Shown one piece after another: positions 1 through 4,162 of a DNA stretch of 64,000 nucleotides (position 1 is the first letter of the stretch; the number at the start of each line of letters is the position of its first letter). Position numbers and translations under genes: made by a program. The notes below the pieces were generated by a model. The model saw only the letters and a list, made by a program, of their open reading frames with translations. It made no database searches and was not told the DNA's origin. Origin of the DNA: Anaerolineae bacterium (GTDB lineage Bacteria > Chloroflexota > Anaerolineae > S140-20); NCBI GenBank assembly GCA_027021705.1, contig JALUTT010000176.1, positions 1 through 64,000 on the forward strand, written 5' to 3'.

Positions 1-99
1 AACCCACCCTCCCCCTCCCGTCCCAGAGCCACCTTTCGCCCCAGGCCGGAGACCACCCCGCCCTCGTTTGCTTTTTCCGCCTATCCCTCGCGCCTCCGT

Positions 100-226
100 T
101 CCTAACGATGGCGTCAGCGGCGCGGCGTCGCCGTCCAACGGCCATTGCGGGCGTATGATTTTAGGCCGAAATTTCGCCGACGTTCGCGCGCGGCGTAGCC
201 GCGTCCGCTGCACGCGGGGTTAGCGC
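100..226 (-). mobile_element. attC: Integron attC recombination site
   Basis: Minus strand reads GCGCTAAC-cccgcgtgcagcggacgcggc...gccgcgccgctgacgccatc-GTTAGGA: inverse core and GTTRRR core, imperfect long palindrome, about 126 bp. The upstream gene's TAA lies inside the inverse core. Confidence 0.9.
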
Positions 227-1365
227 TGTCGTCCTGAGGTACGCAAGTGTTTACCTTCACCAGATAATAAATAATGCACTGTCAACGGGTGCATGTCTAT
301 TCTCAGATAATCTCCGTGACCTTCCTTGCTAACGCTGGCCAGAAAAGTGCTCTCTATCTCATTCAAGTAACGATCTATCTTTTGCGGAGAAGAAGATCCA
401 AGGAGGTTGTACAAACTTTGCATCGGCAGAAGACTCCGCTCTTCATTTACCGAACGCGCAAATTCTTTCAGGAGTGTCTTATGTGCAGGGCTAAGAAGTT
501 CTAATAATGATTGGTATAAATATTCCTGCACATTCTCTTTATCCCATTGCTGTAACAACAAGGCATCTATTCCCTTTAATTGGTGCCACCCTCTTTTTGA
601 TAAAAGAGCAATGGAGAGCTTGATAAACAGCGGATTACCACGCGCAAACCTTAAAATTAGAGCTTTTTCCTCTGTTTTTAACTTAAGCTCGCGCTCCCTC
701 GCCAAACTATCTAAAAACTCTTCAGCCACTTCGTTTGGCATGGGAGAAATTATAGTTGTGTAAACTCCATTAATCTCAAAAGTGCTGATTTCTTTACGTG
801 AAGTGAGTATAACCTGGCTAGGCCAAGGCACATCCTGCACAAAATCAAATACTCGCCGTCTTTCCTTTAAAACCCAGCTATCAACATCGTCGATTACTAC
901 TATAACCTTTCGCCCTTCAAGCAAGCTATACACAGTATCCTGAAGATCAAAAAGAGCATCCTCCCTATTCATTACGTTTTTAAACACTTTTGTCAAGGGG
1001 CTTTCCATTACTTCCAGGATTAGGTACAGTAAATCAAAAAGGGTGGCTGCGAAAATTCCTTTATGCTTTATCCGTTTTTGGTAAAAAGAAACAGAAAAAC
1101 GTTTTCTCACACTCAACTCACGCTGTTTTGCTGTAGCCCATACAACTCCTTCTACCGCATGCAAGCCACTCTCTACTTGTTGAAACGCCACCTTGGATAC
1201 TATCGTTGTTTTGCCAACCCCAGCCTCACCACACACAGCCACAATAGGGCGCTTCAACTGAAAGAGCGCTCTTTCTATCTGTTGGATTTCTTTGCCCCTA
1301 TCAAAAATTTTTGCGACCTCTTCGCGTCCATATGGGAGATTATTAAGGACTTCGCTCTTCCTCAT
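220..1365 (-). CDS. NB-ARC/STAND-type P-loop ATPase, 381 aa, no obvious effector or sensor domain (cassette gene 2)
   Basis: Walker A GEAGVGKT, Walker B VIVVIDDVD, sensor-1 ILTSR, GxP motif ARGNPL, MHD-like MHPL. RBS AGGAGGAG precedes ATG at 1365. AT-rich. Confidence 0.8.
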   Translation of the reverse strand: MRKSEVLNNLPYGREEVAKIFDRGKEIQQIERALFQLKRPIVAVCGEAGVGKTTIVSKVAFQQVESGLHAVEGVVWATAKQRELSVRKRFSVSFYQKRIKHKGIFAATLFDLLYLILEVMESPLTKVFKNVMNREDALFDLQDTVYSLLEGRKVIVVIDDVDSWVLKERRRVFDFVQDVPWPSQVILTSRKEISTFEINGVYTTIISPMPNEVAEEFLDSLARERELKLKTEEKALILRFARGNPLFIKLSIALLSKRGWHQLKGIDALLLQQWDKENVQEYLYQSLLELLSPAHKTLLKEFARSVNEERSLLPMQSLYNLLGSSSPQKIDRYLNEIESTFLASVSKEGHGDYLRIDMHPLTVHYLLSGEGKHLRTSGRQR

Positions 1366-1381
1366 AGCACACTCCTCCTGC

Positions 1382-2158
1382 TTACTCAAACAAAGCCACC
1401 TTGCCAGTCTGAATAGGCAATTCTGAAAAACCACTATCCTTGCTCCGAAACACACGTCCTATACTATTTTGACATCGGTAGTCCAATATTTCTACCTGCA
1501 TGTATTTCGCGTTTTGCCATGGGATATAGGGAAAATATACAAATATTGAAGAGCCAGCACTAATTTCCACTCTTTTAATGGGCGTCCAGAATTCTTTTGC
1601 CATTGTTTCACTGCTGTCTATATCCATATAATAAGTCACCCTAATGTAAAGAGCCAACGAATATGCGCTACCTTCAGCATAAATTTGATGATTCTCCACC
1701 TTTATCTTAACATAACGCAGGGGGGCTCTGCTACCACTCGTTGCCGAACGCGCAAATCCTTGTAACATCATCCACAAGTCTCGGTAATCACGATACTTAG
1801 ATTCAGATTTAGGCAGCAAGTCTTCTCTTTCTTCGCACAACCAACACACGCTTCCTGCATTCTTAACCTCATTCTCGGGCACCAATGAAGGATAAGGAAT
1901 GAATTTGAGCAAGGGGGTGCTATGAAGTCGCTTTTCCACCTCTTTCCAATGATTTTCTATGATCAACCAAAGCAAAGACAAAATTCCAGCTCCACCACCC
2001 ACCTGAGACAGAATATCAAGCCAATCTTTTTTAGGACCCATTGGATATCGCGGAGCTAAAAACGCCTTCACCAAAACAACCAAGGCTCCCACACTAATTA
2101 GAGAAACACAGAAGGTCAACGTACATCGTAATCGCAGATGCCGCACCAATTGCTTCAT
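1382..2158 (-). CDS. Hypothetical membrane protein with two N-terminal TM helices (cassette gene 1)
   Basis: 258-aa AT-rich ORF, GGAGGG RBS, two hydrophobic segments near the N-terminus, 16-bp gap to the ATPase gene. Confidence 0.75.
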   Translation of the reverse strand: MKQLVRHLRLRCTLTFCVSLISVGALVVLVKAFLAPRYPMGPKKDWLDILSQVGGGAGILSLLWLIIENHWKEVEKRLHSTPLLKFIPYPSLVPENEVKNAGSVCWLCEEREDLLPKSESKYRDYRDLWMMLQGFARSATSGSRAPLRYVKIKVENHQIYAEGSAYSLALYIRVTYYMDIDSSETMAKEFWTPIKRVEISAGSSIFVYFPYIPWQNAKYMQVEILDYRCQNSIGRVFRSKDSGFSELPIQTGKVALFE

Positions 2159-2189
2159 GGCAAAATCCCTCCACAGCAAATATTACCAC

Positions 2190-2215
2190 GCGCTAACATG
2201 TACTTATGCGGAAAG
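2190..2215 (-). mobile_element. attI: Probable attI site and cassette start
   Basis: Minus strand GCATAAG-TACAT-GTTAGCGC: degenerate L box, 5-bp spacer, core. GTTAGCGC is the exact complement of the cassette's terminal GCGCTAAC. No attC-like hairpin upstream. Confidence 0.75.
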
Positions 2216-2220
2216 ACCTC

Positions 2221-2325
2221 GTATATACTCCTAGATGCAAAAGGCATCTACTCGTAGATACTTTTCCCTCCGACCCGTATGGGCATATACCGCTATATGC
2301 CTTCTATGCATCTACTCCTATATGC
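2221..2325. promoter_or_regulatory. Four 18-bp palindromic operator-like boxes GYATMTA-N4-TAKATRC
   Basis: Copies at 2221, 2244, 2283 and 2308: gtatatactcctagatgc, gcatctactcgtagatac, gcatataccgctatatgc, gcatctactcctatatgc. Confidence 0.65.
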
Positions 2326-2490
2326 CTCCCTCCGCCGCTCTCTGCACCCCCACATCCCGCGGAGGGCGAGGACACCGCCCCTCCCCCTCGGCAGCTCACC
2401 GATTCAAAAACCCCGAGAACCCCCAAACCGCTGAGTCCCCCGAGACCTCCGCAAGAAGAGCGCCCCATCAAGGGGATTCCGGCCGGCCGA

Positions 2491-2861
2491 ACCATCCGTT
2501 CAATCCGCCCCCCCAATCCGCTGACAGCAGACCACCAAAACCATCCGTCCAATCCGCTCTCCCCAATCCGCTGACAGCAAACCATCAAAACCATCCGTTC
2601 AATCCGTTCCCCGAATCCGTTGACAGCAAACCATCAAAACCACCCGTTCAATCCGCCCCCCCAATCCGCTGACAGCAAACCATCAAAACCATCCGTCCAA
2701 TCCGCCCCCCGAATCCGTTGACAGCAGACCATCAAAACCACCCGTTCAATCCGCTCCCCCAATCCGCTGACAGCAGACCGTCAAAACCATCCGTTCAATC
2801 CGCCCCCCCAATCCGCTGACAGCAGACCATCAAAACCACCCGTTCAATCCGCTGACAGCAG
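2491..2861. repeat. Tandem repeat, ~49-bp unit, ~8 copies
   Basis: GACAGCA recurs at 2523, 2573, 2622, 2671, 2720, 2769, 2818, 2854. Unit approximates accatccgttcaatccgccccccaatccgctgacagcagaccatcaaa. Confidence 0.95.
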
Positions 2862-2945: not shown

Positions 2946-3068
2946 AAAAACTACGAAAAACTACGGACTTACTTTAAGCTCCTTCAGCGCTCCCAGAAAA
3001 AACTGCGAGAAACTGCAGCGAACTGCAGCAAACTGCGAAAAACTGCGAGAAACTGCGGCGAACTGCAA
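2946..3068. repeat. 10-bp-period AACTGC/AACTAC repeats
   Basis: AACTGC at 3001, 3011, 3021, 3031, 3041, 3051, 3061; AACTAC at 2949 and 2959. Confidence 0.9.
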
Positions 3069-3093: not shown

Positions 3094-3439
3094 TCACCCC
3101 TCCTCCACAATCCGATCCTCCAGCCCCAACGCCACCACCCGGTCGTACCGCAGCCGCCACACCTTCGCCCCCCGATCCCACCGCCCCCCCGCCTCCCGAA
3201 CCCGCCTCTGCAACGCCTTCTCCTCCCACCCCACCCGCACGGCCACCACCTCCTCATCCCCATAACGCCGAGACCGAGGCTCCCAATCCACCTCCTCCAC
3301 GATCAACTCCACCGTCTTGTACCGCTTCCCCCATTCCGCATCGTACCGATACCGCCACGCAGACCAACCGATCCCCGTACTCCTCCACCAACTTGCGGGT
3401 TCCCCGCTGCCCCGGCTTCAGCGTCAATCGCGTCCGCAT
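3094..3439 (-). pseudogene. Frameshifted small hypothetical gene (~114 aa) between intI and attI
   Basis: MRTRLTLKPGQRGTRKLVEEYGDRLVCV joins RYRYDAEWGKRYKTVELIVEE...AGGRWDRGAKVW...EEG* if one extra G near 3355 is removed. RBS is present. Confidence 0.75.
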
Positions 3440-3597
3440 CCCCTTGCGCTCCTCGCCTTCTTGAGGTAAAATCCCCCAACCACCCGGAACACAAACCGGG
3501 CACCCCAGGCACCATCGGGGGAGATGACCACCACGCAGTTCCCCAATGGCCCCCACGAGTGCCCGGCATCCAGGCCCGTTTCGCTCAGCTTGCGCCC

Positions 3598-3640: not shown

Positions 3641-4020
3641 GTCTTGCGCCACCAAGAACCTCTCCAAATCCTGCTCAACCGACTCCGAGACACCATCTCG
3701 TCTCCGTCCGGGCCAAGAAACCCCAACGCCTCCCCACCGTCCTCTCCCGCGAAGAGGTCCGGCGCCTCCTCGACGCCCTCTCCGGCACCCACCAACTGAT
3801 GGCCAAGCTCCTCTACGGCTCCGGCCTCCGGCTGATGGAATGCGTGCGCCTGCGCGTCAAAGACCTCGACTTCGCCCACCGAGCCATCCTCGTCCTGGAG
3901 ACCGGCTACGACATCCGCACCGTCCAGGACCTGCTGGGCCACAAAGACATACGGACCACCATGCGCTACACCCACATCCTCCGGCGGGGCGGCCTCGCCG
4001 TCCGCAGCCCCCTCGACTGA
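3641..4020 (+). pseudogene. intI: Integron integrase remnant with two large internal deletions
   Basis: RAKKPQRLPTVLSREEV...LLYGSGLRLMECVRLRVKDLDF and LETGYDIRTVQDLLGHKDIRTTMRYTH..RGGLAVRSPLD are IntI signatures. The GKG to HxxR region is missing (junction ~3894). The N-terminal LLNRLRDTI lies in another frame after a GAGGAGG RBS. Confidence 0.9.
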
Positions 4021-4162
4021 CCCTCCCTTCCCCCCCATACTCCCTCAGACTCTGAGGCCCGTACCCGCCGTCCACCCTCGGCGGTCCGCAGTCTGCCGTC
4101 GGCGGTCCGTATCCGCCGTCGGCGGTCCGTATCCGCCATCCGCGCTCGACCCCGGCGGCCCC

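Follow-up and report, generated by a model that had tools for sequence, protein, structure and literature searches.

A NOD-only STAND ATPase gene and a predicted membrane protein gene in a single integron cassette of an Anaerolineae bacterium

Proteins of the STAND/NLR type are thought to need a repeat sensor, which keeps them off and detects the trigger, together with an effector domain, which acts. At the start of contig JALUTT010000176.1 (C176) of an Anaerolineae bacterium (GenBank assembly GCA_027021705.1; 5.19 Mb, 183 contigs, 66% guanine plus cytosine (GC)), a gene is found for a 381-residue ATPase, P0001, which belongs to a conserved family that keeps only the STAND switch, is carried on integron cassettes, and is here paired with a predicted membrane protein, P0002. 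The analysis covers the first 64 kb of this contig, a stretch of 64,000 nucleotides (nt) referred to below as the window. The two genes occupy one cassette of 2,091 nt (window 106-2196, minus strand), which is a true integron gene cassette, AT-rich and foreign in origin. What is new here is the NOD-only family and its carriage on cassettes, the cassette itself being ordinary integron biology. As for function, the best reading of the pair, held tentatively and at somewhat less than an even chance, is that of a miniature two-gene conflict module of the abortive-infection type.

The ATPase and its NOD-only family

The NB-ARC model of Pfam matches residues 26-291 of P0001 with 48.4 bits against a cut-off of 23.5, PF01637 reaches 39.9 against 33.2 bits, and AAA_16 also exceeds its cut-off; NACHT stays below its gathering score (19.7 versus 26.7 bits). 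The NOD fills roughly residues 20-370 of the 381, no further Pfam domain is present, and the protein terminates 22 residues past the MHD-like His359. The tripartite organization of NLR and Avs proteins is thus not found in P0001, which has neither a C-terminal repeat sensor nor an N-terminal effector domain, and the same NOD-only layout is seen in its 15 closest relatives.

In an alignment of 17 family members, 16 of which match NB-ARC, the residues G46, G49, G51, and K52 (Walker A), K80, D159 and D160 (Walker B), R190, and G243 and L246 (GNPL) are invariant, the MHD-like H359 is conserved in at least 90% of the sequences, and a short N-terminal 'NLP' motif is common. The full STAND motif set that an earlier note on this DNA, written from the letters alone, had ascribed to the ATPase is borne out by this alignment and by the NB-ARC score. 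Compared with solved structures, the family profile matches residues 223-464 of Apaf-1, that is, up to the end of its WHD, with an E-value of 1.3e-16. An AlphaFold2 model of P0001 built on the alignment has a predicted local distance difference test (pLDDT) score of 83.3 and a predicted TM-score (pTM) of 0.84, and the Foldseek search that had been proposed as a check places tomato NRC3, CED-4, a wheat resistosome protein (G10), and Apaf-1 on top, with the archaeal structures 2qen and 2fna also among the best matches (TM-scores 0.55-0.65). The model and these matches support an NBD-HD1-WHD fold. Judged from sequence and model, P0001 belongs to the NB-ARC clade among the STAND NTPases, with a predicted complete NBD-HD1-WHD switch.

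To assess the extent of the family, 1.84 billion representative proteins were searched exhaustively with phmmer, which returned 484 matches at E <= 1e-3. The 15 best non-self matches are 372-422 aa long (E 5.8e-31 to 1.7e-18, 25-32% identity) and align end to end with the query, from about residue 6-25 to about residue 343-374. The next match is a protein of 932 aa, and most of those below it measure 750-1,250 aa, with the NOD starting mostly at residue 130-230 and later in some; these longer matches are interspersed with shorter proteins, of which P0020 and P0022 are again of the short type. In a Pfam scan of 20 longer relatives, NB-ARC was present in 19, TPR repeats in 15, and an N-terminal Metallophos, PNP_UDP, or SEFIR/TIR domain in three. 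Because the 15 best relatives are themselves short and align over their whole length, P0001 is, on this comparison of sequences, a full member of a rare NOD-only STAND family rather than a fragment of an NB-ARC-TPR protein, and the description of the ATPase as 'naked', advanced in the earlier note, holds.

The family clusters contain one or two sequences each, and the 17 that were looked up have a metagenome-type source or no source name, on contigs of 1.6 to 125 kb. A metagenome scan with an alignment from which the P-loop was omitted gave 47 candidate stretches and two loci, namely the window's own contig and a 2,528-nt contig, L041. On L041, the end of the contig truncates the gene of the family member on its 5' side, and the 3' end of the gene lies about 150 nt before a canonical attC site (GTCTAAC 956 to GTTAGGG 1064), so that both of the two family members with visible DNA are carried on cassettes. 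The L041 attC appears by eye to be AT-richer than that of the window, which suggests that the NOD-only gene family travels with different types of attC. Positions 1236-2065 of L041 form the next, separate cassette, with an attC of its own (fold z-score -3.8); it encodes a different protein of 183 aa that contains about four hydrophobic segments. No short family member was found in a 400-genome sample of the phylum and the 40 nearest relatives, and a tblastn search of the ATPase against plasmids and phages returned three Rhizobium NB-ARC genes (28% identity over 56-57% of the query).

Some candidates from other scans were set aside. A scan of genome contigs with a six-sequence alignment, in which only the P-loop was used, yielded 32 long STAND genes, none of them of the family, the best reaching 74.7 bits in a frame of 1,206 aa; viral contigs gave five P-loop-only matches in one scan and none in another; and a 392-aa frame in one genome (G288) was rejected as a split, unrelated NB-ARC gene.

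The cassette and its integron context

The 5' boundary of the cassette is the core site G/TTAGCGC (the slash marks the boundary), which lies beside an attI-like platform, and the 3' end is an attC site of 127 nt whose crossover point falls between G106 and T105 (Table 1). On the forward strand, GTTAGCGC occurs at 219-226 and GCGCTAAC at 2190-2197, so that G2197/TTAGCGC exactly complements the R'' GCGCTAAC (226->219) of the same cassette; a cassette circularized through its attC needs first bases that are complementary to its own inverse core in this way. The stop codon of the ATPase gene, TAA (222-220), sits within this inverse core. Within 4.3 kb there are 136 inverted pairs of at least 8 nt, and an inverted pair of 8 nt is therefore not significant alone; it becomes meaningful here because four independent features, namely the drop in GC content, the palindrome, the end of the homology with contig C120, and the arrays of sites, coincide.

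Positions 100-226 constitute an imperfect palindrome bounded by CCTAAC and GTTAG. When the plus strand is folded as single-stranded DNA, a stem of 16 pairs is formed with two 1-nt bulges on its 3' arm (the L-box stem), and the position of these bulges identifies the plus strand as the recombining bottom strand, with both genes in the canonical orientation. The two bulges consist of T and C, those of textbook attC sites usually of T and G. The arm duplex amounts to -25.6 kcal/mol; owing to the very high GC content of the site, the fold z-score against shuffled sequences reaches no more than -1.3. The case for a cassette is carried by anatomy and context rather than by folding energy. The same geometry, in which an unpaired spacer separates a 6-bp R box from an L stem bulged on the 3' arm of the bottom strand, recurs at a host attC (C126:4542-4660) and at both attC sites of L041, and an attC with its repeat unit on C126 is 75% identical to the unit of the window over 225 nt. 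No attC is present in the 16-nt gap between the two genes. With a 3' attC that has RYYYAAC...GTTRRRY cores and a bulged palindrome, a 5' boundary of the G/TTRRRY type, and an array of attC-bounded units, the structural features that define an integron cassette are found. The placement of both genes in one cassette, as claimed in the earlier note, agrees with the anatomy, the boundaries, the GC drop, and the arrays.

Composition leads to the same picture. The GC content is 0.37-0.49 between about 230 and 2200 and 0.56-0.70 in the flanks, and coding GC is 0.424 compared with 0.669 in the rest of the window. The two genes are closely matched (GC 0.421 and 0.425; GC at third codon positions (GC3) 0.40-0.42), the neighboring host gene for prolyl-tRNA synthetase having a GC3 of 0.90. 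This shared low GC and GC3 relative to the host, combined with the 16-nt spacing, indicates, as far as composition and layout can tell, that both genes are foreign to the genome, entered it together, and make up a single operon with tight spacing. The attC has a host-like GC content of 0.677. As an observation in its own right, the cassette is thus compositionally chimeric (attC 0.68, coding part at 220-2158 0.42), which may say something about how cassettes arise or come to be re-equipped with attC sites. In the public DNA run that holds this stretch, contigs span positions 79-2221 in one piece with no differences, including the base that tells this copy of the platform from the copy on C120; the run adds no new joints and is possibly the source of the assembly, and hence is not independent support for contiguity. 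No RNA run was listed as holding the stretch.

Table 1. Features of the cassette and its surroundings in the window
Feature	Position	Strand	Remarks
Next cassette start, conserved non-coding element	1..99	-	G-rich on minus strand; follows R'; contig ends inside
attC	100..226	-	R'' GCGCTAAC 226->219; R' GTTAGGA 106->100
Gene of the 381-aa NOD-only NB-ARC/STAND ATPase (P0001)	1365..220	-	Pfam, family alignment, AlphaFold2 model
Intergenic spacer, 16 nt	1366..1381	-	Shine-Dalgarno-like AGGAGGAG; no attC
Gene of the 258-aa predicted membrane protein (P0002)	2158..1382	-	GGAGGG 8 nt upstream of ATG
Core site G/TTAGCGC, cassette 5' boundary	2190..2197	-	Homology with C120 stops here
attI-like platform	2198..2560	-	Conserved with C120:98400-98720
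Integron integrase gene remnant	3706..4017	+	TIGR02249 model positions 90-152 and 272-313 only

The homology of the platform with C120 ends exactly at GTTAGCGCG, beyond which unrelated cassette DNA follows. Four imperfect palindromes, AT-rich and about 18 nt long (GCATCTAGGAGTATATAC type), are found at 2198-2335; they resemble the integrase-binding repeats of an attI site and may be such repeats. The two segments of the integrase remnant score 88.5 and 61.1 bits with TIGR02249, compared with a cut-off of 265, and PF00589 is matched with an E-value of 1.9e-16. The locus is best named a decayed integron, or an attC cluster with an intI remnant, since the intact intI of a complete integron is missing. 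Integron integrases over the cut-off are present in 17 of 41 genomes, comprising this one (itself below it) and 40 relatives, and in none of 14 controls, so that the lineage is integron-rich and the copy here is decayed; the class appears to be unusually rich in chromosomal integrons. In the relatives G401-G434, many integrases are found no more than about 200 nt from a contig start, and an in-frame stop occurs in four of the 20 over-cut-off matches.

A scan for core-site pairs with complementary arms detected 40 strand-hits, which correspond to about 22 distinct attC-like sites (69-128 nt), within the 30.5 kb of seven array regions (on C126, C102, C45, C39, C22, C120, and C176), compared with eight strand-hits in 60 kb of control sequence from the same contig. 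The element at window 1-107 has 11 other copies with 73-90% identity on C126, C102, C45, C22, and C39, and in 10 of the 11 it is followed by a variable palindrome ending in GTTAGG, GTTGGG, or GCTAGG. The contig ends 100 nt past the attC, within this repeated unit, so that the neighboring cassette is out of view.

Several further observations concern the arrays and the region around the platform. The element belongs to a unit of some 590 nt, of which there are at least 10 copies (window 1-107; C126, C102, C45, C39, C22, and C120; for example, L063:4660-5246). In this unit, a non-coding element that is C-rich (G-rich on the top strand) and has GCGAATGGGG-like repeats inside it is joined to a nearly identical attC of 126 nt; the unit looks like an amplified 'empty' cassette, and the array regions matched nothing in Rfam. 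A 49-nt tandem repeat at 2490-2852 (7.4 copies, 89% matches) comes after the attI-like region and before the intI remnant; units related to it are scattered across dozens of contigs, and the summed depth in the public run is about 2,500 over 2601-2700 versus about 60 for the cassette. A small conserved-looking gene on the minus strand (MRTRLTLKPGQRGTRKLVEEYGDRLVCV...RYKTVELIVEEVDWEP...; 3094-3470), frameshifted near 3350, occupies the place where the 5' half of intI belongs. The intI remnant is flanked by a 10-nt tandem repeat of the AAACTGCGAG type (3000-3066, about six copies) and by a 20-nt TCGGCGGTCCGTATCCGCCG tandem repeat (4078-4137, three copies) just upstream of the prolyl-tRNA synthetase gene. 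On C120 (L062; 98300-101004), a second attI-like platform directly follows a housekeeping-type gene with no integrase nearby; attC-bounded cassettes come after it, one with an AT-richer gene for a protein of some 220 aa (98947-99606) and a second that starts at 99929, and the contig end carries three direct repeats of about 107 nt.

The gene pair and the explanations of its function

P0002 has a strong transmembrane helix at about residues 10-34, preceded by five basic residues, and its last 190 or so residues, beyond a second hydrophobic segment, become beta-rich towards the C-terminus. It is probably a two-helix membrane hairpin with both ends inside the cell and a cytoplasmic tail of about 190 aa, as predicted from these segments. 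Comparison with the ESM Atlas led only to unnamed clusters (best feature score 0.91, structural TM-scores of at most 0.48) and named no family, and a single-sequence AlphaFold2 model was too poor for a fold search (pLDDT 47). A complex prediction for the ATPase with residues 70-258 of P0002 scored 0.00 against a mark of 0.32, which gives no verdict either way. P0002 had no tblastn match in plasmids or phages and none in the 40 related genomes or the 400-genome sample of the phylum, and two word-index searches returned only the query; such a search also missed ATPase relatives that phmmer had found and is therefore insensitive. The 'orphan' status of P0002 is accordingly weak, the protein being unexplained rather than proven unique.

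In STAND proteins, nucleotide exchange drives oligomerization into a signaling platform. Cassettes of chromosomal integrons are reported to encode streamlined anti-phage systems, among them two-gene cassettes, one of which has a predicted transmembrane pore (bioRxiv 10.1101/2024.07.02.601686). Taken together, the switching behavior and this precedent lead to the reading of the pair as a miniature abortive-infection module, in which the defence role, the binding between the two proteins, and the effector role of the membrane protein are all inferred. In such a module, the ATPase would be held inactive in its ADP-bound form until infection gives a cue, which would be sensed by the membrane protein or by the NOD itself. 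This would permit nucleotide exchange and ATP-dependent oligomerization of the NOD, and the resulting ring might cluster or activate the membrane protein, leading to membrane damage and arrest of phage growth. The NOD would then serve as switch and scaffold, and the membrane protein as effector and perhaps as sensor.

A number of results weigh against this proposal. Of the interpretation given in the earlier note, which had taken the pair for a candidate defence system, the cassette and the naked STAND module stand, but the PADLOC check yielded P-loop matches only: with PADLOC-DB 2.0, the best E-value for P0001 is 5e-4, confined to residues 25-62, and across the 17 family members the best is 1.1e-6, with PDC-S27 matched in four members in the P-loop region only. 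P0002 has no family in Pfam, NCBIfam, PADLOC, or PHROGs, and no relative of it was found that would speak for a conserved pairing with the ATPase. Its second hydrophobic segment, at about residues 50-68, is weak, with a single 19-residue window at 1.86; if this helix is not real, the tail lies outside the cell and no contact with the ATPase is possible. The sole membrane-protein gene visible on L041 belongs to a separate cassette and is unrelated to P0002. Finally, the cassette may be silent cargo, as the crossover point is a mere 38 nt away from the ATG, no promoter-like site was found upstream of the operon in a consensus scan, and no integron integrase above the TIGR02249 cut-off occurs anywhere in the 94.9%-complete assembly.

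Some of these points favor an explanation in which the two genes share a cassette with no joint function, the ATPase acting alone or with host factors, as archaeal PF01637 ATPases might, and the membrane protein being a passenger. The ATPase family is conserved and no relative of P0002 was found, the neighbor on L041 is a separate cassette, the structural matches include the stand-alone proteins 2qen and 2fna (TMt 0.59-0.60), and several family members lie on contigs of 1.6-1.9 kb, too short for both genes, although contigs can be cut anywhere. Such independence is nevertheless considered unlikely, since the 16-nt spacer has its own Shine-Dalgarno sequence, the GC contents match (0.421/0.425), no internal attC divides the cassette, passengers are unexpected in size-constrained cassettes, and the apparent absence of P0002 relatives comes from word searches that missed ATPase relatives too. 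Less probable still is a membrane-associated regulatory or signaling pair unrelated to phages, for example a nucleotide switch for a membrane process or a stress response. Bacterial STAND proteins such as MalT are indeed also regulators, AfsR appears among the weak solved-structure matches, and neither protein contains a recognizable toxin or nuclease; against this, the WHD of the NOD itself is the one part of the ATPase that could bind DNA or serve as an output domain, its nearest long relatives have TPR sensors and immune-type N-termini rather than helix-turn-helix domains, and the pair resides on a mobile cassette of foreign composition.

There is little to recommend an addiction module of the toxin-antitoxin kind, in which a toxic membrane protein neutralized by the ATPase would stabilize the cassette array. 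Toxin-antitoxin cassettes are frequent in sedentary integron arrays, and a small membrane protein with a second protein in a tight operon would suit the scheme, but both proteins are large for such systems, no toxin-antitoxin family was matched, and we know of no precedent for a toxin-first gene order with an ATPase of 381 aa as the antitoxin. An equally slight chance is given to inert cargo, that is, a real cassette whose genes are unexpressed or non-functional in this host. The reduction of intI to two fragments, the GC3 of 0.40 compared with 0.90 in the host, and the outcome of the promoter and terminator scan (three promoter-like sites, all within genes, versus 3.4 expected, and none upstream) point that way; on the other side, both open reading frames are intact with good ribosome-binding sites, all ATPase motifs are kept, and the cassette comes first after a conserved platform, which in the general integron model is the best-expressed position. 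This explanation, moreover, concerns activity in this host and not the function of the module.

If the pair works as the abortive-infection reading proposes, it would offer a minimal, clonable 2.1-kb system for how a NOD is kept inactive and triggered without a sensor. A bolder version, which is doubtful, sees in the pair the smallest immune system of the NLR type so far, with a bare NOD that hands perception and killing to a separate membrane protein, and holds that the family spreads between distant bacteria as cassettes that acquire host-type attC sites. Were this true, NLR-like switching would need only NBD-HD1-WHD, and the integron arrays of environmental phyla would be a reservoir of miniaturized STAND immunity. 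If the abortive-infection reading holds, the view of integron cassettes as banks of streamlined defences (bioRxiv 10.1101/2024.07.02.601686) would also extend beyond Vibrio to a GC-rich environmental lineage. Should the ATPase work alone, a NOD-only clade that is still unannotated would remain.

Comparison with known systems

A full-text search of a literature collection yielded one unrelated paper and none linking integrons with NB-ARC proteins. The relevant passages of PMC7159879, PMC13581612, and bioRxiv 10.64898/2026.03.17.712381 describe no NOD-only STAND protein with a two-helix membrane partner, although their supplements might list such clades. A 2026 survey of Avs sensors in Nature excluded clades without sensors of at least 400 aa, as it states (PMC13581612).

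P0001 shares its NTPase superfamily with the Avs and NB-ARC-TPR conflict proteins, and its next-best relatives are NB-ARC-TPR proteins of 800-1,250 aa, some with Metallophos, PNP_UDP, or SEFIR/TIR N-termini. It differs from them in having no tripartite effector-NTPase-sensor architecture, and no PADLOC model of Avs or another defence system matches beyond the P-loop. The archaeal proteins PABY2304 (PDB 2qen) and SSO1545 (PDB 2fna), of about 350 aa, likewise consist of an ATPase and a winged helix only (TMt 0.59-0.60), but identity is 13-15% and P0001 scores higher with NB-ARC than with PF01637; the comparison with these uncharacterized proteins provides no mechanism. With Sucellos, a two-gene cassette of the Vibrio cholerae chromosomal integron, the pair shares the form of a compact system in a single cassette. 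No relationship in sequence is expected; the passages on such systems report no STAND ATPase cassette, and the present cassette lies in a decayed integron of a different, GC-rich lineage.

The closest structural likeness is to Apaf-1, CED-4, and the plant CNL/NRC proteins (top Foldseek TMq 0.59-0.65). Unlike these, P0001 carries no CARD, CC, or TIR domain, no HD2, and no WD40, LRR, or TPR repeats, and it is encoded on an integron cassette; what it shares with them is the NBD-HD1-WHD core with Walker A and B motifs, a sensor-I Arg, a GNPL motif of the GxP type, and a His of the MHD type. CED-4 itself works without a repeat sensor and is controlled by the membrane-anchored CED-9.

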